NCBI GenBank assembly: GCA_964195975.1
Contig: CAXMQZ010000087.1
Location: 747-64,746, forward strand
Source of the DNA: an uncultured Polyangiaceae bacterium
Lineage (GTDB): Bacteria; Acidobacteriota; Thermoanaerobaculia; Multivoradales; JAHEKO01
Direction of reading: 5' to 3'
DNA: 64,000 nt
Of the stretch, positions 906 through 30,119 are shown one piece after another. How positions within the stretch are numbered: the first letter of the stretch is position 1; every line of letters starts with the position of its first letter. The notes beneath the pieces were generated by a model. It did not search any database and was not told the origin of the DNA. It worked only from the letters and a program-made list of their open reading frames with translations. A program made the translations under genes and the position numbers.

Positions 906-3278
906 TCAGAAGCCCGGACTGAAACCATACTGCGACCCTCCGCTCAGATCCAGAAAGGTACCGATGTTCTTGAGTGTGATGGCAAACCGGAAGTCCCGCT
1001 CCTTCTCGGCGGCGAAGTTGCGTTGATACTCCCGCACCTCGAGTCTGATCCCAAAACACTGCGAAAAATAGGACATGACATAGCGTTGACTCTGAAGATA
1101 CGACCGCTCGAAGTCGTAGTTGATTTGAGCATCGACCCGAAACCGGTTCGGCCACACACCGATTCCGGTATAGAACCGAATCTGATTGCTATTGGTATCG
1201 CCGGTCACCTTGTCGAAGCGGGTGAACCAGGTCAGACCAACGCTGTGGTTGTTGCCGATTCCCAAACCGCCGGTGATCGATGTCGATGTCAGCTGGCTGA
1301 ACAGGGTGCTGTAGGTCGCCTTGGCTTCCAGGCTCGATCGTTGGGAGGGGTTGAAACGATATCGCCCCGCAAGAGGGCCGGTGGTCGATGACTTGAACTC
1401 TTCATCAACGCCCCCAGAATCCAGCGTTTTGTCGTCGTCGAGACTGAAAAACTGGGTGATCTCGAGCGACATGATCTCGCGGGCACCACCCCCACCCGCG
1501 GATTCCTCTGCGGGCTTTGCCAACAGACGGTTGACAAAGTTGTAAGAAAAAATGTTGAACCCCTGAACCAGATCGACTTGGTCAAACTGAAGAATATCCC
1601 CGGCATCGTCATAGTCGCTGACAAAGCCATAGTTCCAGCGCGGCTCGATAATGTGCTTGAATTTCGCGAAGGGCCCGATGTTGCCGTCGAAAACTCGCGA
1701 GAACGATGGGCCAATGATTGCGCCGCTCGCAGTCGTCACGGTCCGGGTCAAACTCTCACCGGTGGTCTGGCCAATTTCCCGATCGATGCTGTCACTCCAG
1801 TAGGTCACCCGGCCTCCGCCCGTAACCGTTGCGGACAACCATGGCAGTGTGCTCAACGAGGCTGTCAGATTGGGTCCGAAATCGAAGCGTCCCCAGTTCC
1901 GATCGAAGCTTCTGCTGTTTTCATCGTCAGGGGGCAATCCGTCGCTACGTTCAGAGGTAATGTAGTTGGCCGAGCTGAGCGCATCGACATACAGCGGCAA
2001 ACCCCAGAGCTGAGTAGCTCTCAGACGATACTCGGCCTCGGGCAGCTGGCGGTTGGTCTGGGTGTCATCGTCTCTAATAAACGTTTCGTTCTGCTCTACC
2101 AGCATGTTGAAGGACTGCTGACCCCAGCTTCCGGACAAGAAGCCGCTCGAGATCAGACGCCGGATCGAGACGTTGTTGAAATCGCGTTCGAAATCACGGA
2201 AAAAATCAAAATCTGAGAAATCCTGAAACCGAATCACACCGCGGAGACCGCCAGGAAGATCGTTGCTGGTGTGGGTGTAGAAAACCTTCCAGCGGAGGCT
2301 GTCACTGTCTGGATCGTCGATGATCTGCCCTTCGAAATTACCCGCTGTGTGCTCGCTCGGTCGATATCGAAACTCGTTTCCGACGGCAAGAAAGTTCTCG
2401 CTGTAGATGTCTACAAGAAAGGTCGTGTCGTAGCTGTCGCCGAGGGTCTGAAAGTAGGCCAGACCCAAAACCGCACCGCGTTGGTTCGAGTAACCGATAT
2501 TGGGAAACAGGAGCCCTGATTGCCGCTCGGTCTTGGCCGGGTAGGCAAAGTAGGGGAAATAGAAGATCGGTGCTTTCTTGATACGAAATCGCGAGTTCTT
2601 GAGCTTTGCATAACCCTCGAGCTGCACCTCACCCCGGCTCACGCGCATATTCCAATCGGGGTTCTTGTCGAGACAGGAGGTCACCATACCGTCAACCAGT
2701 CGATATCTGTCCTCGCCCAGTTTGGTGATTTCGGCGCCTTCAAAATAGATATCGGGGTCGACATAGGCTTTGGCGTTGGTTACCGTTCCCGTCTCGGTCT
2801 CGAGATCGAAGAACATCGTGTCACCGACCAGGCGTTTGGGCCCTTCATCGAAAATGACATCGCCTTCGGCAGTGATTTGCTCGGCCTTGAGGTCTACGGC
2901 CACCTTTTCGCCCTGAAACAGATACTGCCGGAATCGCAACTCCACGCCACCACTCAAGACCACATAGTCTTCCCGCACATACTCTAGATGGCCAGCGGTG
3001 CCCACTGCGGTGCCCCCACCCTTGTCCGCGGGAAAAGGCACCTGGAAGGTGATGCGATCTAACCGTGGCCCCGTCGGGACCTGCGCGGCCCCCTCCTCGA
3101 GCTCGGCGTCTTGGTTCTCGAGTACGTCTGATTCAGCGTCCTGCTCCTGAATCGGGTCATCTTTGAAGAGATCATCTTGCAGGCTGTAGTCCTGGGACCT
3201 GGCGGGCATCGAAAGGCACACCGCAATTGAGGCGACAAGCGTCGCTCGGATCCAGCCCGAAATCCGATTTTGGTTCAA
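906..3278 (-). CDS. lptD: LPS-assembly outer-membrane protein LptD (OstA family)
   Basis: The 790 aa product has a signal peptide, an OstA-like N-terminal domain (ITAEGDVIFDEG...) and a long C-terminal beta-barrel with aromatic-rich strands. Confidence 0.85.
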   Translation of the reverse strand: MNQNRISGWIRATLVASIAVCLSMPARSQDYSLQDDLFKDDPIQEQDAESDVLENQDAELEEGAAQVPTGPRLDRITFQVPFPADKGGGTAVGTAGHLEYVREDYVVLSGGVELRFRQYLFQGEKVAVDLKAEQITAEGDVIFDEGPKRLVGDTMFFDLETETGTVTNAKAYVDPDIYFEGAEITKLGEDRYRLVDGMVTSCLDKNPDWNMRVSRGEVQLEGYAKLKNSRFRIKKAPIFYFPYFAYPAKTERQSGLLFPNIGYSNQRGAVLGLAYFQTLGDSYDTTFLVDIYSENFLAVGNEFRYRPSEHTAGNFEGQIIDDPDSDSLRWKVFYTHTSNDLPGGLRGVIRFQDFSDFDFFRDFERDFNNVSIRRLISSGFLSGSWGQQSFNMLVEQNETFIRDDDTQTNRQLPEAEYRLRATQLWGLPLYVDALSSANYITSERSDGLPPDDENSRSFDRNWGRFDFGPNLTASLSTLPWLSATVTGGGRVTYWSDSIDREIGQTTGESLTRTVTTASGAIIGPSFSRVFDGNIGPFAKFKHIIEPRWNYGFVSDYDDAGDILQFDQVDLVQGFNIFSYNFVNRLLAKPAEESAGGGGAREIMSLEITQFFSLDDDKTLDSGGVDEEFKSSTTGPLAGRYRFNPSQRSSLEAKATYSTLFSQLTSTSITGGLGIGNNHSVGLTWFTRFDKVTGDTNSNQIRFYTGIGVWPNRFRVDAQINYDFERSYLQSQRYVMSYFSQCFGIRLEVREYQRNFAAEKERDFRFAITLKNIGTFLDLSGGSQYGFSPGF

Positions 3279-4462
3279 CTCGCGATCTCCCGATCGATGA
3301 TCACAGCCGTGGCCTCACCTCCGCCGATACAAATAGCGGCACAGCCTCGCCTGAGTCCACGTTGTTCGAGCGCATGTAGCAAAGTCACGATGATCCGAGC
3401 GCCGGATGCACCAATTGGATGACCCAAAGCAACCGCTCCACCGTTGACATTGACCTTGTCGGTGGAGATACCGATCTCCTGGACGAACGCCATCGCCACG
3501 ACCGCAAACGCCTCGTTGACTTCCCAAAGGTCGATGTCATCGCGTTGAAGACCGGCTCGATCGAGCACGAGATCGACGATGTTGGTGGGCGCGGTCGTAA
3601 ACCACTCCGGTTCCTGGGCAATCGATGCTTGCGCCACCAGCCTCGCCATCGGTCGCAGACCAGACTGTCGAGCGTAGGCGGAGGTCGTCAAAGCGAGGGC
3701 AGCAGCGCCATCGTTGATTTTGCTCGCATTGGCCGCCGTGACCGTACCATCCTTTTGAAAAGCCGGTCTAAGGCCCGACATTCGGCTCAGGTCGACGCGA
3801 AACGGCTCTTCGTCGCGATCAACCGTAATCGGGTCACCCTTGCGCTGAGGCACTTCCACCGGAACGATCTCCGCATCGAATCGTCCACTTTCCGTCGCCT
3901 CTGTTGCGCGACGATAGCTCTCTGCAGCAAAAGCGTCCTGAGCCTGCCGCGAAAACTCATACTTTGCAGCACACATCTCAGCGCAGCTGCCCATATGGGT
4001 GTCGTTGTAGGGATCCCACAAACCGTCGTGAACCATGGAGTCGATGAGCTTCCCGTTGCCCAGTCTCAAACCATCGCGCGCCCCTACCGCTAAGTAAGGG
4101 GCGTTGGACATACTCTCCATTCCACCAGCTGCTACAAGGTTGAAATCGCCGCATCGGAGATCGTTGGCTGCTGTCATCACCGCTCTCATCGATGAGCCAC
4201 AAACCTTGCCAACGGTCACCGCACCCGTGGATACCGGGCATCCAGCGCCCAGTGCCACCTGCCGAGCAGGCGCTTGACCGACACCAGCGGTCAAAACGCA
4301 CCCCATGTACACCTGATCAATTTGATCAGCCGTGACACCGGCTTTATCGATCGATCCCGCCAACGCGATTGCGCCCAACTCGGGCGCAGCCAGCGTCCTC
4401 AGAGATCCCTGAAAGCTGCCTACTGGCGTGCGTACAGCACTCAGGATGACGATGTCTTGCAT
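3275..4462 (-). CDS. acetyl-CoA C-acetyltransferase (thiolase II)
   Basis: The 395 aa product starts MQDIVILSAVRTPVGSFQGSL and carries thiolase signature regions including the C-terminal GGGEATAVII. It overlaps lptD by 4 bp. Confidence 0.85.
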   Translation of the reverse strand: MQDIVILSAVRTPVGSFQGSLRTLAAPELGAIALAGSIDKAGVTADQIDQVYMGCVLTAGVGQAPARQVALGAGCPVSTGAVTVGKVCGSSMRAVMTAANDLRCGDFNLVAAGGMESMSNAPYLAVGARDGLRLGNGKLIDSMVHDGLWDPYNDTHMGSCAEMCAAKYEFSRQAQDAFAAESYRRATEATESGRFDAEIVPVEVPQRKGDPITVDRDEEPFRVDLSRMSGLRPAFQKDGTVTAANASKINDGAAALALTTSAYARQSGLRPMARLVAQASIAQEPEWFTTAPTNIVDLVLDRAGLQRDDIDLWEVNEAFAVVAMAFVQEIGISTDKVNVNGGAVALGHPIGASGARIIVTLLHALEQRGLRRGCAAICIGGGEATAVIIDREIAS

Positions 4463-7299: not shown

Positions 7300-7998
7300 G
7301 TGATAATCGTGAATGAAGGTCAAAATCTTCGAGTAATCACTCAGCCTGATCATGCCCGCTTCTCGGGCGAGCTGCTCGAGCTTTGGCTTCTAGATGCACT
7401 GCCAGACCACTCGAGACGTTCGGATCTTCTCTTTGCCGTGCGCGAACACGACAACGGCTGGAGGGAGGCGGATGCGTCGCCCCTAGTCGATCCGATTACC
7501 GCAACCCCCCACGACTTTCTCAGCTTTCCGGAGATGGAGAGACTCGAGGTCTGGAAGCGAGGTGTCGATCGATACGCCGACACCAGACCCTATTCAGCAT
7601 TGTTGATTCTGGAGCATGCCCGAGTGCTACACACCGCCTCGGACGATCTTTGGAGAGCCTTCCTGGACGAGCTCGAAGCCAAGCGTTCGGAGCTAGTCGA
7701 CAAGCTGGGACTCGATGAGGATCAATTGAAGGCCGACTACACCTACTTGCGTCTGACAGACAAGCTGTCATTGACTGTCTGCAATAAATGGCTGGACAGA
7801 TTGCGCTATGCGGGTGTCGAGAGCCAGGCCAGCGAAGACTCGATCACCCTGGATCCATTTCCTTTGGCCGGTGCGACGACTTTCCGAATTCCCTGTCGGT
7901 ATATTCCCAATCGGCCCTATGCCAGCGACTCCGACTTGGGTGGAGAATTGGCCACAGCTCGGTGGAACGAGCTCGAAATTCGGGTAAGACCGTCCTAG
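7300..7998 (+). CDS. hypothetical protein (possibly DUF3891-like)
   Basis: Intact 232 aa ORF. Its TAG stop codon (7996-7998) lies in the CCTAG target-site repeat of the adjacent IS element. Confidence 0.45.
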   Translation: MIIVNEGQNLRVITQPDHARFSGELLELWLLDALPDHSRRSDLLFAVREHDNGWREADASPLVDPITATPHDFLSFPEMERLEVWKRGVDRYADTRPYSALLILEHARVLHTASDDLWRAFLDELEAKRSELVDKLGLDEDQLKADYTYLRLTDKLSLTVCNKWLDRLRYAGVESQASEDSITLDPFPLAGATTFRIPCRYIPNRPYASDSDLGGELATARWNELEIRVRPS

Positions 7999-8942
7999 TT
8001 GTGGATTCCCATGAGGTTGTTCAGTAGCGGGAGTCTACTGATGGGTGGTTTGTTTCCAAGACTCATGTGTTGTCGGTGAAAGTTGTAGAAGTGGAGATAG
8101 AGCGGGAGCCGTTGAGTTCGCTGTTTGGAATGGCTGTAGATCCATCGGTAGGCCCATTCTCTCAGGAGCGTCTGGATAAAGCGTTCAGCTTTGCCGTTGG
8201 TCTGCGGTCGGTAGGGTCGAGTTCGCTTGGCTCGCAGGCCCAGCTGGCGACAGGTGGCCACGAAGCGCTTGGCGATGTAGCAGCCGCCGTTGTCGGTGAG
8301 AATGGCGCGGGCCTGGATTCCTTTGCCGGCAAACCAGGCCACTGCCCGCTTGAGGAAGGCAATAGCCGAGTCCTGGCGCTCATCGGGGAGGATCTCAACA
8401 TAGGCGAGCCGAGAGTGATCATCGATGCAGACGTGGACAAACTCCCAGCCGCCGCCTCGAGCCCGTTGGCGGTAGTCGCCGGTGACGCGATGTCCAATGG
8501 TGCCGATGCGGCCCAGCTTCTTGATGTCCAGGTGCAGGAGCTCACCGGGAAACTGCTTTTCGTAGCGCCTCACAGGCTCGTGCGGCTCGAGGGAGCGAAG
8601 ACGACCAAGGCCACAGCGCTGAAGGATGCGAGCCACCGTCGAGCGAGGCAAGCCCAGGCGGGCTGCAATCTCACTTCCCGTCAGACGTCGGCGGCGCAGA
8701 GCGACGATCTGAGCCACTTTCCCCGCAGGGGTCTGGGTCGGCATCCGGTGAGGTCGCGACGAGCGCTCCACGAGCCCAGACGGGCCCTCGGCCCGGTACC
8801 GGGCCAGCCACCGGTAGGCCGATCGCTGGCTGAGGCCCAGGGCCTCAGCCGCCTGCTTCACCGTCCACCCCTCCTCGCACACCCGCCGTACAAGCAGGGC
8901 TCGACTTGCGACGCAGCTTCGGGCATTCTTGTGGATGTCCAT
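7995..8942 (-). CDS. IS481-family DDE transposase
   Basis: The 315 aa product starts MDIHKNARSCVASRALLVRRV with an HTH, followed by an rve integrase core (...HLDIKKLGRI...TDNGGCY...RPYRPQTNGKAERF). Its stop codon is the flanking CTAG. Confidence 0.9.
   Translation of the reverse strand: MDIHKNARSCVASRALLVRRVCEEGWTVKQAAEALGLSQRSAYRWLARYRAEGPSGLVERSSRPHRMPTQTPAGKVAQIVALRRRRLTGSEIAARLGLPRSTVARILQRCGLGRLRSLEPHEPVRRYEKQFPGELLHLDIKKLGRIGTIGHRVTGDYRQRARGGGWEFVHVCIDDHSRLAYVEILPDERQDSAIAFLKRAVAWFAGKGIQARAILTDNGGCYIAKRFVATCRQLGLRAKRTRPYRPQTNGKAERFIQTLLREWAYRWIYSHSKQRTQRLPLYLHFYNFHRQHMSLGNKPPISRLPLLNNLMGIHN
8000..8041. repeat. IS481-family left terminal inverted repeat
   Basis: TTGTGGATTCCCATGAGGTTGTTCAGTAGCGGGAG pairs with the reverse complement of the right end at about 29 of 40 positions. 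Confidence 0.6.
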
Positions 8943-9003
8943 CCGGGTCTCCTTTCGGGTACTGATCGGTTAGGTCCCAATCAGCTTCTCCGAAAAAGCT
9001 CGG

Positions 9004-9045
9004 ATGGACAACTCCTTTCACTGAACAACGTGCTGAGACTCCACA
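9004..9045. repeat. IS481-family right terminal inverted repeat
   Basis: The reverse complement reads GTGTGGAGTCTCAGCACGTTGTTCAGTGAAAGGAG. Confidence 0.6.
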
Positions 9046-9105
9046 CCTAGGAGCCCTTCCGAGTAACTCGCGCAGCTATGCGGATTACTCGGAAGGGCTC
9101 CTAGG
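9046..9105. repeat. perfect 21-bp inverted repeat (hairpin) with an 18-nt loop
   Basis: CCTAGGAGCCCTTCCGAGTAA ... TTACTCGGAAGGGCTCCTAGG. Its first 5 nt are the right direct repeat of the IS. Confidence 0.8.
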
Positions 9106-9131
9106 CTAGCGAGCGTGATAACATCTCTGGC

Positions 9132-9698
9132 ATGCCGGAACCTGATTCCGACGTGGGTCTTCTGACGCCTGAACCGCTTGTAGAACCGACCCGAATCCGC
9201 ATCCCCTCCGCGCTCGGCACCCTGGGCGTCGAGCTCACGGGCGACGTGGTGACCCATGTCGTCATCGTCCCAAGAGGAAAAGCACGAAGTCAGTTTCGGG
9301 ATTTCTCAGATCTCAAGAGATCCGAGAGGTCCGATTTCCTGGACGAGGTTCTTGGTAGGTTTTCGGAGTTTTTGGCAGGCGCTAGACGAAGTCTGGGTCT
9401 CGAATACGATCTCAGTGCCACCGGAGTGACCGGTTTTACTCGCCGTGTGTTGAAACAAACCGCCAAGATCCCGTATGGCAAGACCCGAAGCTATCAACAG
9501 ATAGCAGAGGCGGCGGGAAGACCCACTGGCTATCGCCAAGTTCAATCAACCCTGATGGCGAATCCTCTTCCTTTGATTGTTCCCTGTCACCGGGTGGTTC
9601 CTGGAAAAACTGGAATTGGCAGCTTCATAGGCGGCGCCAAGAAAAAGAAATGGCTTCTCAGGCTCGAAGAGCGCACCCTAGCTATCGACGACCTGTAA
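9132..9698 (+). CDS. ogt: methylated-DNA-protein-cysteine methyltransferase (O6-alkylguanine alkyltransferase)
   Basis: Contains the IPYGKTRSYQQIAEAAG region and the PCHRVV active-site motif. Confidence 0.85.
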   Translation: MPEPDSDVGLLTPEPLVEPTRIRIPSALGTLGVELTGDVVTHVVIVPRGKARSQFRDFSDLKRSERSDFLDEVLGRFSEFLAGARRSLGLEYDLSATGVTGFTRRVLKQTAKIPYGKTRSYQQIAEAAGRPTGYRQVQSTLMANPLPLIVPCHRVVPGKTGIGSFIGGAKKKKWLLRLEERTLAIDDL

Positions 9699-27186: not shown

Positions 27187-28218
27187 ATGGCCTCTACGAG
27201 AATCCTTCTCATACGCACCAGCGCCCTCGGGGATGTGATCCATGCCCTACCCGTGCTCACTGCACTAAGGCGGAACCTGCCCGAGGCTCGAATCGCTTGG
27301 CTGGTGGAAGAGGCCTACGTACCCTTACTCCAGTCGCATCCGGACCTCGACGAAGTAATACCGGTACGACTCCGTGACTGGCGAAAAAGGCCAATCTCCC
27401 GTTCAACATGGTCTGGGATTCGCGCCTTTCTCAAGCAACTAGAAAACTACCGTGCAGAAATCGTGCTCGACCTGATGGGAAATCACAAGGCTGGCATTCT
27501 GGCCGCGCTGACCATGTCGGATCGAAGGATTGGGCTCGCCCGGAGGTTTCGCCGCGAACCCTCGAGCGCAATCTGGATCAGCGAATCGATCCGGCCAAGT
27601 GGTGAGCATACGGTCGATCGAATGTTGAGCCTGTTGGAGGCTTTGGGGTTGCCGGAGCAGCCAGTCGACTTCGGACCTGAAAAGCTCCGCACAGCGCTGG
27701 GGGTAGCGACGGACCTCTCCAACCTGGATCCACCTAGAATCGTAGTCCACCCCGGAGCTGGCTGGCCCAACAAGCGCTACCCTCCAGATCGCTGGGGTGT
27801 AGTCGCAAAAATTCTCCACGAGCGGACGGGGCTTCGTACTCGAGTCATCTCGACCGAATCGGAAGTGGAGCTCGCTCGAGCCATCGAGCGGACAAGCTCG
27901 GGCGCTGCGAAGGTAGTCTCGGCGCCCGATTTGTCTAGCTTGGCCGCAGAGCTCCTCAGCGCGACTTTGGTGATGGGCGGTGACACCGGACCGATTCACC
28001 TCGCTCATGCTCTCGGCCGAACAGTTCTGTGTCTCATGGGTCCCACCGACCCGGCGCGAAATGGACCGTATGGGGCCATTGAGAACGCCCTTTGGCATCC
28101 GTTGCCCTGTAGCTTTTGCTACAAGCGATACCAAGATGCCCAGACCTGTATGTTGGAACTGACACCCGAGGTGGTTGCTGATCGAGCCTTGGATCTTCTG
28201 GAACCAAGGCTCTCCTAG
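27187..28218 (+). CDS. ADP-heptose:LPS heptosyltransferase (glycosyltransferase family 9)
   Basis: N-terminus RILLIRTSALGDVIHALP plus ..VVHPGAGWPNKRYP.. and ..MGGDTGPIHLAHALG.., typical of WaaC/WaaF/RfaQ. Confidence 0.75.
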   Translation: MASTRILLIRTSALGDVIHALPVLTALRRNLPEARIAWLVEEAYVPLLQSHPDLDEVIPVRLRDWRKRPISRSTWSGIRAFLKQLENYRAEIVLDLMGNHKAGILAALTMSDRRIGLARRFRREPSSAIWISESIRPSGEHTVDRMLSLLEALGLPEQPVDFGPEKLRTALGVATDLSNLDPPRIVVHPGAGWPNKRYPPDRWGVVAKILHERTGLRTRVISTESEVELARAIERTSSGAAKVVSAPDLSSLAAELLSATLVMGGDTGPIHLAHALGRTVLCLMGPTDPARNGPYGAIENALWHPLPCSFCYKRYQDAQTCMLELTPEVVADRALDLLEPRLS

Positions 28219-28406
28219 GGGCCAAATCAGGGTGCGGCTAGCGCCTTTATGGACTAGTCCATTGACCTGATTTCCGTGCGATTGCTAGACTCTCTCACCG
28301 TGCTACTCGTAGTGACCGGCTGCTTCTTGGTAATTTCTGACCATATGTCGAGTGGGCCAACCCACGGCCGGATGAGCTCCAAGGTACCGGAAGAGGAAAT
28401 CGAATC

Positions 28407-30119
28407 GTGACTCGACTCGGCGAGCTACTAGTCAAAGCGGGCAAGATCACTGACGATCAGCTCGAGAACGCTCTTTCGGCGCAGCAGACCGACGGTGGTC
28501 GGGTCGGAACTCATCTCGTCAAGTTGGGTTTTATCGACGACGACGACTTGGTCGAGTTCTTGTCGCAGAGATATGGGGTCCCGGCAATCAATCTTGGTGA
28601 GATCGAGGTCGACGAGTCGATCATAGGAATCATTCCAGCCGAAGTCGCGCGCAAGTACACAATCCTGCCGGTATCGAAAGCAGGAGCCAAGCTGACCATT
28701 GCAATGGTCGATCCGACCAATGTCTTCGCGATGGATGACGTGAAGTTCATGACGGGCTACAACGTCGAGCCGGTCGTAGCCTCGGACTCCTCGCTGCGCG
28801 GCGCAATCGACCAGTACTACGGCAGCACTCACTCCATCGAGCTCAAAAAGGTCATGGAGGATCTGGCCGACACCGATGAAACCGATCTGGAAGTTCTCGA
28901 AGAAGAGGAAGATCTCGATCTCGAGGCTCTGGAAGCAGAATCGGAGGAGGCGCCTGTTGTACGACTGGTCAACATCATCTTGACCGATGCCATCAAGCGT
29001 GGGGCTTCGGATATTCATGTCGAGCCTTATGAGAAGGACTTCCGGGTTCGCTACAGACTGGATGGTCTTCTCTACGAAATGATGCGTCCGCCCTTGAGGC
29101 TCAAGGAGGCCATCACCAGCCGTCTCAAGATCATGGCCAAGCTCGACATCGCCGAGAAGCGACTGCCGCAGGATGGCCGCATCAAGATCAAGACGCGGGT
29201 CGGTGGCAAGGTCAAGGATCTCGACTTTCGAGTCTCCGTCCTACCGACGATTTTTGGCGAGAAGATCGTTCTTCGCTTACTCGACAAAGACAACCTGGAG
29301 CTCGACATGACCAAGCTGGGATTCGAGTCGGAATCCTTGCGTCGATTCGAACAGGCTGTTCTCAGGCCCTTTGGCATGGTGCTTGTTACCGGTCCAACGG
29401 GATCTGGGAAGACAAATACTCTGTACTCCGCTCTATCTCGAATCAACACACCCGAGACCAACATCATGACGGCCGAGGATCCGGTCGAATTCAACCTGGT
29501 TGGTGTCAACCAGGTCCAGATGAAAGAGCAGATCGGTCTCAATTTCGCTTCAGCTCTACGCTCCTTCCTGCGTCAGGATCCAAACATCATTCTTGTGGGT
29601 GAGATTCGAGATTTCGAAACCGCAGAAGTCGCTATCAAGGCAGCGCTAACCGGCCACTTGGTGTTGTCCACTCTTCATACCAATGATGCCCCTTCTTCGA
29701 TCAACCGCATGATGAACATGGGCATCGAGCCTTTTCTGGTGGCGAGCTCGGTGAATCTCATTGCGGCGCAGCGTCTCATTCGAAGGATATGCACGACCTG
29801 TAAAGAGCCGCTCGAAGTGCCGGAGCAGGCCCTTCTGGACATCGGTTTCTCGAAGTCAGATACCGAGGCCCTCAAGCTCTTCCGAGGAAAGGGCTGCGAG
29901 CGATGCGGTGGTACGGGCTTCAAAGGGAGAATCGCCCTGTTTGAAGTCATGGACGTCGACGAAGGGATCCGCGAGTTGATTCTCTCCGGCGGCAGTGCAA
30001 ACGAGCTGCGGATGCAATCCCTCGAGAACGGAATGATCAGTCTTCGCGCCAGTGGCCTGCAGAAGATTCGTCAAGGTCTGACAACTCTCGAAGAGGTACT
30101 TCGAGAAACGGTCGCCTAA
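28407..30119 (+). CDS. GspE/PilB-family secretion ATPase (type II secretion / type IV pilus assembly)
   Basis: It has a T2SSE_N domain and Walker A GPTGSGKTN. It also carries the tetracysteine motif CTTC...CERCGG. Confidence 0.85.
   Translation: MTRLGELLVKAGKITDDQLENALSAQQTDGGRVGTHLVKLGFIDDDDLVEFLSQRYGVPAINLGEIEVDESIIGIIPAEVARKYTILPVSKAGAKLTIAMVDPTNVFAMDDVKFMTGYNVEPVVASDSSLRGAIDQYYGSTHSIELKKVMEDLADTDETDLEVLEEEEDLDLEALEAESEEAPVVRLVNIILTDAIKRGASDIHVEPYEKDFRVRYRLDGLLYEMMRPPLRLKEAITSRLKIMAKLDIAEKRLPQDGRIKIKTRVGGKVKDLDFRVSVLPTIFGEKIVLRLLDKDNLELDMTKLGFESESLRRFEQAVLRPFGMVLVTGPTGSGKTNTLYSALSRINTPETNIMTAEDPVEFNLVGVNQVQMKEQIGLNFASALRSFLRQDPNIILVGEIRDFETAEVAIKAALTGHLVLSTLHTNDAPSSINRMMNMGIEPFLVASSVNLIAAQRLIRRICTTCKEPLEVPEQALLDIGFSKSDTEALKLFRGKGCERCGGTGFKGRIALFEVMDVDEGIRELILSGGSANELRMQSLENGMISLRASGLQKIRQGLTTLEEVLRETVA

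Follow-up and report, generated by a model that had tools for sequence, protein, structure and literature searches.

Very Probable Nesting of Two CTAG-Targeted Elements, a New IS481-Family Isoform and a Candidate IS1182-Type MITE, at a Stop Codon of an Uncultured Thermoanaerobaculia-Like Bacterium

What does a mobile element do to its neighborhood when it lands on the stop codon of one gene, just upstream of the next? And is the very strong hairpin that follows such a stop codon a terminator or something else? These questions are raised by a locus in the window, i.e., the whole 64-kb stretch of DNA that was analyzed, from an uncultured Thermoanaerobaculia-like bacterium. The initial annotation described here a recently inserted IS481-family element between a host gene and a palindrome, and it took the palindrome for a likely terminator, with likely effects on the downstream ogt. 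We find that the locus, part of a Thermoanaerobaculia-like (Acidobacteriota) genome, very probably consists of two CTAG-targeted elements nested at a CCTAGG that shares bases with a DUF3891 stop codon. The features are collected in the table below.

Features of the locus, in window coordinates (strand is given for genes, the insertion sequence, and the promoter-like box)
Feature	Position	Strand	Remarks
Host gene, DUF3891 family	7300..7998	+	232 aa; PF13030, 142.7 bits; TAG stop 7996-7998 in the left duplication
Single-base difference	7993		T here; G in L002, L004, L170, L173
Left target-site duplication copy	7994..7999		CCTAGT where CCTAGG is expected; mismatch at 7999, adjoining the IS end; empty site GGCCTAGGAG in L002/L004
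Transposase gene	7995..8942	-	315 aa plus stop; ORF overruns the IS end; last codon AAC spans the junction
IS481-family insertion sequence	8000..9045	-	1,046 bp; ends from L085/L165/L168 and size accounting
Terminal inverted repeat, transposase C-terminal end	8000..8025		TGTGGATTCCCATGAGGTTGTTCAGT; agrees with the reverse complement of 9020-9045 at 21/26 positions
Terminal inverted repeat upstream of transposase	9020..9045		Ends ...CTCCACA
Right target-site duplication copy	9046..9051		CCTAGG; the 50-bp mini-element begins with its final G
Left CTAG of the mini-element 4-bp duplication	9047..9050		L170 GCCTAG/GCTAGCG versus L002 GCCTAG(50 bp)CTAG/GCTAGCG
50-bp palindromic mini-element	9051..9100		Two abutted putative IS1182-type terminal repeats, GAGCCCTTCCGAGTAA... 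and ...TTACTCGGAAGGGCTC
Right CTAG of the mini-element 4-bp duplication	9101..9104		From sequence comparison with L170
Candidate extended -10 box (TGnTAnCAT)	9116..9124	+	TGATAACAT; 7 nt separate it from the ogt ATG downstream
ogt, methylated-DNA-protein-cysteine methyltransferase	9132..9698	+	188 aa; TIGR00589, 86.7 bits; PF01035; PCHRV active site

Results

The IS481-Family Element and Its Ends

The predicted transposase scores 321.9 bits against the NCBIfam IS481 model NF033577 (cutoff 224), covering profile positions 2-284 of 284, and contains PF13011 (LZ_Tnp_IS481), HTH, rve (PF00665), and PF13683 domains; the family assignment made at the outset is borne out by this score and these domains. 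The residues D139, D217, and E253 are invariant in an alignment with 12 homologues (55-97% identity). Elements of the IS481 family are approximately 1-1.3 kb long in ISfinder, and the window element has 1,046 bp with a single ORF and no programmed frameshift. Its GC content is 61.9%, compared with 56.7% for the whole window, which holds one copy of the IS. Among genomes, the nearest relatives are unnamed copies in Thermoanaerobaculia and Acidobacteriota MAGs (64-75%), and the closest named element found is ISRel2-like, from Rhizobium plasmids (approximately 52% amino acid identity). An exact-sequence look-up of the transposase protein gave no match on record. The element is a new isoform of the IS481 family, and its behavior is that of ordinary, already-described mobile DNA.

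Multi-copy relatives, together with copies of this IS at other sites, fix its ends at 8000 and 9045. Three loci (L085, L165, L168) align to IS positions 1-1046 at 94-97.6% nucleotide identity, and near-identical copies occupy different sites in other metagenomes. Both ends open with TGTGGA, in keeping with the TGT start of the family, and form imperfect inverted repeats of approximately 26 bp. Inside the IS proper, 21/26 and 27/40 positions are identical; an independent search reports 42 nt at 76% with the CTAG included. The GTTGTTCAG box of the terminal repeat is conserved among relatives. The element boundaries and TGTGG inverted repeats proposed in the initial annotation are present exactly where it put them, with TGTGG at 8000-8004 and CCACA at 9041-9045, followed outward by CCTAG at 7994-7998 and CCTAGG at 9046-9051.

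The Empty Site and the Target-Site Duplication

Removal of the IS and one repeat had been predicted to restore an uninterrupted site, and this site exists in nature. Two metagenome contigs (L002 and L004), with flanks 99.6% identical to those of the window, carry the empty site GACCGGCCTAGGAGCCC and read ...AGACCGGCCTAG/GAGCCCTTCCGAGTAA... at this position. Compared with them, the window is longer by exactly 1,052 bp, i.e., the 1,046 bp of the IS and a 6-bp NCTAGN duplication. The direct repeats that had been described as CCTAG are thus a real NCTAGN duplication, but its length is 6 bp rather than 5, and the left copy is CCTAGT while the right copy is CCTAGG. The same IS has CCTAGG on both sides at the three loci where both junctions are present (L085, L165, L168); for two further loci with only the right-junction flank, this flank is CCTAGC (L166) or CCTAGG (L169). 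This isoform is found almost only at CCTAGG: each of the six sites seen has a CCTAGG copy except L166. In a relative with a 75% identical transposase, which is present in 11 copies in one MAG with Mb-sized contigs, ten copies have perfect NCTAGN repeats with varying N.

Two bases at the left junction, the mismatch at 7999 and the changed base at 7993, are not predicted by simple transposition. The change at 7993 converts the last codon of the DUF3891 gene from GCC (Ala) to TCC (Ser). Among 85 relatives whose duplications were parsed, both CTAG cores are intact in 72, and all mismatches in these 72 are at N positions. Such mismatches may come from recombination between copies or from chimeric short-read assembly, and we draw no mechanism from them. 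Two Logan contigs (L001 and L003), which break 28-30 bases inside the IS, were considered as a source of copy number and polymorphism data and were dropped because their two sides are inconsistent.

How should the left junction and the age of the insertion be read? The duplication could be of 5 bp (CCTAG), with the T at 7999 a donor base from cleavage one base outside the IS end. The size fits equally (1,047 + 5 = 1,052), and in relatives the base beside that IS end varies between sites, with A (on the transposase strand) being common. However, the other copies of the same IS and the ten copies in the MAG mentioned above show 6 bp, and the second change at 7993 would be left unexplained, so that a 5-bp duplication appears rather unlikely. 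The imperfect duplication, the single copy in the 64-kb window, and the lack of any record of the exact transposase protein elsewhere would also be compatible with an old, fixed, and immobile relic. We consider a relic unlikely, since the site is empty in 99.6% identical strains, the ORF has its full length and its catalytic residues are invariant, and near-identical copies are found at different sites in other metagenomes. The original description of a recent and intact insertion agrees well with this polymorphism among close strains. The IS looks transposition-competent.

Stop Codons in the Duplicated CTAG

The reading frame of the transposase has no stop inside the IS. Its TAG (7997-7995, minus strand) lies beyond the IS end, inside the target CTAG. 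As CTAG reads TAG on both strands, the left copy of the duplication still terminates the DUF3891 gene, and the same four bases (7995-7998) terminate the transposase. That both stop codons lie in the duplicated CTAG had been noticed from the start, and the coordinates confirm it. In 138 of 148 relatives, too, the transposase stop lies in the flanking CTAG, and the same has been reported for several members of the family. On the other side of the junction, the same DUF3891 gene is called in L002, L004, and L170-L174.

Origin of the Hairpin

The hairpin that borders the right end of the IS has arms at 9046-9066 and 9085-9105 and a loop of 18 nt. No other hairpin in the 64-kb window comes close to it in length, and it folds with -54.4 kcal/mol (z = -8.7; no shuffled sequence folded as well). 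Rfam at gathering thresholds had no match in the whole window. Where does it come from? It is absent in L170, L171, L172, L173, and L174, i.e., it is not conserved at the orthologous position as would be expected of a terminator; four of the relatives without it are syntenic, and one of these has flanks 92.6-94.5% identical. The spacer between the DUF3891 gene and ogt is 21-35 bp in L170 and L172-L174, compared with 81 bp in L002. L002 and L170 differ by a clean 54-bp indel, composed of 50 bp and a 4-bp CTAG duplication, and the 1,106 extra bp of the window relative to L170 are accounted for by 1,052 + 54.

The arms of the hairpin resemble the ends of IS1182-family elements. They are 14-15/16 identical to the termini of the ISMno8, ISMno38, and Xanthobacter IS1182 elements, in register with the element ends. 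We examined six IS1182 loci (five distinct elements), all of which have GAG at their two termini and a CTAG on either side; the identity of 14-15/16 holds for the four closest of them. The blastn match of an arm to ISMno8 has an E-value of 0.1 when taken alone; its weight comes from its exact, in-register landing on the IS terminus with the same CTAG flanks. ISMno8 itself is a clear family member, with a transposase score of 371 bits against NF033551 (cutoff 270). The 50-bp element thus shares with an autonomous IS family both homologous terminal repeats and the target duplication (CTAG), as is characteristic of MITEs. As far as can be judged from its sequence, it is a miniature IS1182-type transposon and a candidate MITE, and not a conserved terminator. 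A tblastn search with the ISMno8 transposase found no IS1182 transposase in the window, and a protein search for an Acidobacteriota partner found none, giving matches of 75-93% identity of which all source-named ones are alphaproteobacterial. Literature searches for CTAG targeting by IS1182 elements yielded nothing of direct use; ISPsy36, of the same family, targets GGCC, another 4-bp palindrome.

Two other assignments of the hairpin were tried and rejected. A MITE of 48 bp, moved by an IS481-type enzyme and flanked by a CCTAGG duplication of 6 bp, would have the ends AGCCC/GAGCCC, unlike the TGTG ends of all approximately 150 relatives; these ends agree with those of IS1182 elements, whose target duplication is the 4-bp CTAG. 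A REP/RAYT or IS200/IS605-type element inserted 3' of CTAG is rejected on the same grounds.

Several other histories of the palindrome can be weighed against a miniature IS1182-type transposon. The initial annotation held it to be a native intrinsic terminator of the DUF3891 gene, with its first arm broken by the IS and termination and ogt expression altered as a result. The hairpin does begin directly at the stop codon, and its fold is extremely stable. Hairpins of the MITE or REP type can serve as terminators or mRNA stabilizers, and this one could function in termination even though it is not conserved. However, the stem of 21-26 bp is far longer than usual terminator stems and is followed by CTAGCGAGCGTGATAAC and not by a T-run, and a promoter/terminator scan made no call here or at the IS ends. 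Four syntenic relatives, one with 93-94% identical flanks, do without the hairpin, its arms correspond to the terminal repeats of IS1182 elements and are flanked by a CTAG duplication, and a conserved promoter-like box lies downstream of it. Nor was the first arm broken: the IS inserted at the CTAG on the left border of the hairpin, which is intact. We therefore regard a native terminator as very unlikely and give up this part of the earlier description. Alternatively, the hairpin might be ancestral, and slippage between the CTAG/CCTAGG repeats on its two sides might have deleted it precisely in the relatives. Palindromes between direct repeats are prone to deletion, but independent precise losses would be needed in or before four lineages with 65-92% protein identity, and the homology of the arms to IS1182 termini and the CTAG flanks point to gain; such a course seems extremely unlikely. 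More serious is a variant of the IS1182-type explanation itself, in which a full-length IS1182 copy inserted and lost its interior in place, and the 50-bp unit has no history of movement as a MITE. No further copy of this unit was found in the window or in the set of 175 sequences (174 fetched loci and the window, 0.76 Mb), a scan of viral contigs for the hairpin arm gave 0 matches, and 50 bp is smaller than typical MITEs. The deletion would have to take out approximately 1.4 kb in such a way that each of the two remaining arms measures exactly 25 bp, and we hold in-place loss to be a real possibility, though not the probable one.

The Region Upstream of ogt

Between the hairpin and ogt, the five loci that were aligned (L002 and its four syntenic relatives) share a block, CGTGATAnCATC, in which a single position varies between A and G. 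It contains TGATAACAT, a candidate extended -10 box by its letters, whose distance to the ogt ATG is constant in these loci; a two-hexamer promoter scan found nothing at this position. The location of the conserved box, downstream of both insertions and upstream of the ogt ATG, argues against a strong dependence of ogt on upstream read-through. The insertion may well be without effect on ogt.

Discussion

The order of the two insertions can be read directly from the sites compared: the mini-element came first and the IS second, since L170 has neither, L002 and L004 have the mini-element only, and the window has both. In the history that we propose, a 50-bp element composed only of two IS1182-type terminal repeats would have arrived with a 4-bp CTAG duplication and formed the hairpin. 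The arriving element may have been a MITE, or else a full copy whose interior was lost afterwards. The 1,046-bp IS would then have integrated at the CTAG on the left border of the hairpin. Its DDE (integrase-like) transposase would recognize NCTAGN and cut with a stagger of 6 bp, and repair would duplicate CCTAGG, leaving both neighboring ORFs, the hairpin, and the promoter-like box before ogt unharmed. IS481-family transposition is probably copy-and-paste. The IS would have moved by copy-out/paste-in and may be active at present, and the polymorphic site and the near-identical copies elsewhere are indirect support for actual transposition; a literature search for IS481 circle junctions yielded nothing of direct use.

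For the IS481 family, NCTAGN targeting and stop codons whose TAG is taken over from the target have been published before, and the window adds little to them. ISRe46/TnRErm46 of Rhodococcus equi has a 6-bp NCTAGN duplication in which the TAG of the flanking CTAG is the transposase stop, and the CTAG on the other side can give the stop codon of the target gene parB, which remains uninterrupted (PMC6794481). The DUF3891 gene is in the same arrangement here, a likeness that is drawn from the published description and not from sequence. There are differences as well: ISRe46 is the transposase module of the 6.9-kb TnRErm46, which carries erm(46) as cargo in an actinobacterium, while the window has a plain 1,046-bp IS in an Acidobacteriota-like genome. 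In ISLxc2 and ISLxx4, too, the transposase stop lies in the host insertion site (PMC2516522). IS481/IS1002 of Bordetella pertussis and ISLxc2 of Leifsonia xyli resemble the window element in having one DDE ORF, TGT-type repeats, a length of approximately 1-1.1 kb, and an NCTAGN duplication, but they are distant from it in sequence.

For the mini-element, the closest comparison is with ISMno8 and ISMno38 (IS1182 family) of Methylobacterium nodulans plasmids, whose termini read GAGCC(C/T)GTCCGAGTAA with CTAG flanks; the hairpin likewise has GAGCCCTTCCGAGTAA at both ends and CTAG flanks. ISMno8 is 1,466 bp long and encodes a 444 amino acid IS1182 transposase, whereas the mini-element has no interior and resides in another host phylum. 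Bacterial MITEs and REP-like palindromes (e.g., Correia elements) are similarly short, non-coding, and hairpin-forming, with terminal repeats and a target duplication, and they are similarly placed in intergenic spacers just 3' of a stop codon. A length of 50 bp is at the extreme small end for MITEs, and a MITE family is defined by repetition in the genome, of which the window shows one copy.

For annotation, the locus provides a new IS481-family isoform from an uncultured Thermoanaerobaculia-like bacterium, with well-defined limits and an empty site that is proven, and a clear case of a "silent" insertion that spares both adjacent ORFs. It also provides a very strong post-stop hairpin that appears to be a 50-bp pair of IS1182 repeats and not a terminator, which matters where operons are deduced from hairpins in poorly known phyla.

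One may ask whether the CTAG at the DUF3891 stop codon works as a "safe" landing pad that regenerates itself. An IS1182-type and then an IS481-type element, from two unrelated families of DDE transposons, would have used the pad here, each restoring the stop codon and leaving fresh CTAGs. We think this idea doubtful. Each IS1182-type mini-element imports two new CTAGs, and if the idea is true, such elements could systematically seed hot spots for IS481-type insertion. More speculatively still, the G-to-T changes at 7993 and 7999 might represent donor-flank carry-over at paste-in, e.g., through a CTAG-containing 5' flap that anneals to the gap. In the window as a whole CTAG is scarce, with 89 occurrences compared with approximately 133 expected, and CCTAGG occurs six times compared with approximately 19 expected.

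An IS481-Family Element between Two Host Genes

A DUF3891 protein gene and ogt (TIGR00589, with the PCHRV motif) flank an IS481-family insertion sequence (IS), the window reading ...AGACCGTCCTAGT/TGTGGATTCC...(IS)...GACTCCACA/CCTAGGAGCCCTTCCGAGTAA-18 nt-TTACTCGGAAGGGCTCCTAGGCTAGCG... The coordinates and features of the initial annotation proved correct: layout, terminal inverted repeat (detected independently by a repeat finder), hairpin and open reading frames (ORFs) were all recovered. The family assignment also holds. The 315-amino-acid protein matches the NCBIfam profile NF033577 “IS481 family transposase” end to end at 321.9 bits (cutoff, 224 bits), has the Pfam domains LZ_Tnp_IS481, HTH and rve, and in an alignment with 11 homologues (55-97% identity) D139 (HLD), D217 (TDNG) and E253 (NGKAER) are invariant. 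There is a single copy within the 64-kb window, with a GC content of 61.9% (window, 56.7%). The named hosts of homologues of both the transposase and the DUF3891 protein point to Thermoanaerobaculia/Acidobacteriota.

Features of the DUF3891-ogt region (window coordinates)
Feature	Position	Strand	Remarks
DUF3891 gene	7300-7998	+	232 aa, ORF listing
IS terminal inverted repeat	7993-8034 vs 9011-9052		76%
Target duplication of IS	7994-7999 and 9046-9051		CCTAGT and CCTAGG
Transposase ORF	7995-8942	-	315 aa, ORF listing
IS481-family element	8000-9045		1,046 bp
Antisense ORF	8067-9050	+	327 aa
TCCGA-N6-TCGGA stem	8976-9010
Hairpin	9046-9071 vs 9080-9105		92% over 26 nt (repeat finder)
CTAG duplication of mini-element	9047-9050 and 9101-9104		4 bp
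Mini-element	9051-9100		50 bp, two abutted IS1182-type terminal repeats
CGTGATA(G/A)CATC block	9113-9124
ogt	9132-9698	+	188 aa, ORF listing

Duplications of 4, 5 or 6 bp are inseparable from one copy, so we turned to relatives. In a Candidatus Multivoradales (Thermoanaerobaculia) metagenome-assembled genome (MAG) with Mb-sized contigs, all 11 full copies of a related IS (transposase 75% identical) start with TGTG and finish with CACA, and identical NCTAGN hexamers, whose N bases vary by site, flank 10 of them. The IS of the window was itself found at other sites (94-97.6% nucleotide identity over 1-1046), with CCTAGG on both sides in L085, L165 and L168 and one readable junction each in L166 (CCTAGC) and L169 (CCTAGG). 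Together these copies fix the ends of the element, and the target duplication is the hexamer on either side (see table). The NCTAGN targeting proposed earlier therefore stands, whereas the repeats are 6 bp long, per the relatives' hexamers, and not the 5-bp CCTAG.

The transposase frame ends ...ATC CAC A/AC TAG, the TAG lying inside the flanking CTAG, and 138 of 148 relatives with a readable stop (52-97% identity) end in the same way. In ISRe46/TnRErm46 a flanking CTAG supplies the stop of the transposase, and the CTAG on the opposite side can supply that of the target gene (e.g., parB, at the left end) (PMC6794481); in ISLxc2 and ISLxx4 the transposase stop likewise lies in the target (PMC2516522). 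At L168 (ENA ERZ23499045 scaffold_1085, 1095-1101), which holds the same IS, one CTAG is the stop of both the transposase and a convergent glyoxalase-family host gene on the minus strand, as host gene and transposase share theirs in the window. The shared stop, which makes this case look special, is thus a known IS481-family trait. The element is a new, apparently active member of the family with its published target and stop-codon behaviour.

Two further features overlap the element. The antisense ORF, opposite nearly the whole transposase gene, is in all likelihood a shadow ORF produced by GC-rich coding DNA. The small conserved TCCGA-N6-TCGGA stem (upstream of the start on the minus strand) separates the inverted repeat from the ribosome-binding site of the transposase; it has the same place in related elements (L005-L026) and might protect against read-in expression of the transposase.

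The Empty Site

The predicted empty site, with the gene stop followed by the hairpin, exists in L002 and L004, a pair of metagenome contigs from JGI found by exact-protein look-up of ogt. Their DUF3891-ogt distance is 81 bp, and the site reads ...AGACCGGCCTAG/GAGCCCTTCC... with CCTAGG as target. They match the window at 99.6% identity in the flanks, and the window is longer by exactly 1,052 bp. Both IS junctions are present in two Logan contigs (L001 and L003, run ERR13301390) that are 100% identical to the window, so the insertion is no artefact of window assembly.

The left duplication copy is CCTAGT instead of CCTAGG, and position 7993, just outside it, is T in the window and G in L002, L004 and the related loci L170 and L173. 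These two G-to-T differences (7993 and 7999) fall within 7 bp, against a background divergence of 0.4%; they change the last DUF3891 codon from Ala to Ser and the last transposase codon from Thr to Asn, respectively. Error-prone gap repair, donor-flank carry-over and chance are possible explanations. In relatives with both CTAG cores intact, repeat copies mismatch only at the N positions, a count confounded by recombination and chimeric assembly.

A Hairpin of IS1182-Type Ends

With a folding energy of -54.4 kcal/mol (z = -8.7), the hairpin is the only long one within the 64-kb window. It had been read as a likely terminator. We compared the genomic context of DUF3891 homologues at L170 and L171 (92% amino acid identity), L172 (74%), L173 (75%) and L174 (65%). 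The order YceG-CsgG-DUF3891-ogt-GHMP kinase is kept among them (CsgG is uncalled in L173; L171, a 903-bp contig, holds only DUF3891 and the spacer start), and the DUF3891-ogt spacer is just 21-35 bp in the four loci where the ogt start is present. L170 reads ...GACCAGCCTAG/GCTAGCGAGCGTGATAGCATCTCTGGCATG, and at the slash L002 has 54 additional bases (alignment A1). Compared with L170, which matches its flanks at 92.6-94.5% identity, the window has a surplus of 1,106 bp (1,052 + 54). There is no T-run 3' of the stem, and a terminator scan did not call the hairpin. Given the short spacers, the missing 54 bp, the lack of a T-run and the silent scan, we rejected a conserved terminator and do not retain the earlier reading; it is possible that the RNA hairpin still behaves like a terminator or 3' stabiliser.

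The hairpin, searched by blastn against plasmids, gave a weak match (27 nt, 92.6%, E = 0.1) exactly at the terminus of the annotated “IS1182-like element ISMno8” of Methylobacterium nodulans pMNOD02 (...CTAG/GAGCCCGTCCGAGTAACGGG...(1,466 bp)...CTTACTCGGACAGGCTC/CTAG...), whose transposase scores 371 bits against NF033551 (IS1182; cutoff, 270). Six loci with five distinct elements were compared (ISMno8 in two copies, ISMno38, and elements of Xanthobacter, Mesorhizobium and Halomonas). All six have CTAG at both flanks and a GAG start, and the four closest are identical to the hairpin arms GAGCCCTTCCGAGTAA at 14-15 of 16 positions. The matching termini and CTAG flanks indicate that the 54-bp insertion is a 50-bp element plus a 4-bp CTAG duplication. 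This mini-element shares terminal repeats and CTAG flanks with ISMno8 but is 50 bp long instead of 1,466 bp; it could have arrived by transposition as a MITE or represent what is left of a complete copy. No second copy was found in the window, the fetched loci (0.76 Mb including the window) or viral contigs. No partner IS1182 transposase was found in the window, and in a protein search all hits with a source name (75-93% identical) were alphaproteobacterial.

Order of Insertion and ogt

Neither element occurs in L170, the mini-element alone occurs in L002 and L004, and the window carries the pair, so the mini-element arrived first. The CTAG at the left border of the mini-element was then the target of the IS481-type element; the 6-bp duplication takes in the first G of the mini-element. 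The IS insertion left both ORFs as well as the hairpin undamaged. The whole case is an ordinary object, an IS481 member nested against a miniature IS1182-type element.

The block CGTGATA(G/A)CATC upstream of ogt has the same place in L170, L172, L173 and L174 and is invariant, bar one A/G position, in five aligned loci (L002 and these four relatives, 65-92% protein identity). From the end of its TA(G/A)CAT hexamer to the ogt ATG is a constant 7 nt, while the remaining spacer is variable. We infer from this pattern a putative extended -10 element (TGnTAnnnT) and a leaderless or near-leaderless ogt mRNA. Both insertions are upstream of this block, so a likely effect of the IS on ogt, as claimed earlier, is unsupported, although an effect may exist.

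CTAG Sites and Repeated Targets

CTAG is rarer than expected in the window (89 sites vs. 133 +/- 12 in shuffles), as is CCTAGG (6 vs. approximately 19 from base composition). Two of the six CCTAGG sites are the feet of the mini-element; another, unoccupied, is among five CTAGs in the intergenic region 28214-28431. In the Ca. Multivoradales MAG CBDCXF01 (L010, L013 and L014, approximately 2900-3000 and 3945-4000), related IS copies (75% transposase identity) lie within short tandem repeats with a CTAG inside or next to them (L014, for instance, has (CCACTAG)n and L013 a GTGGGTA repeat); arrays of this kind provide CTAG targets. Many related copies in the Acidobacteriota MAG CBDCMH01 (L015-L026) and the alphaproteobacterial MAG CAVZBZ01 (L055-L075) are centred in palindromic flanks that recur, among them CCCGGGCTAGCCCGGG and TCCCGC-TCTAGA-GCGGGA. 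These elements apparently insert time and again into CTAG-containing repeated palindromes, REP-like or of other kinds.
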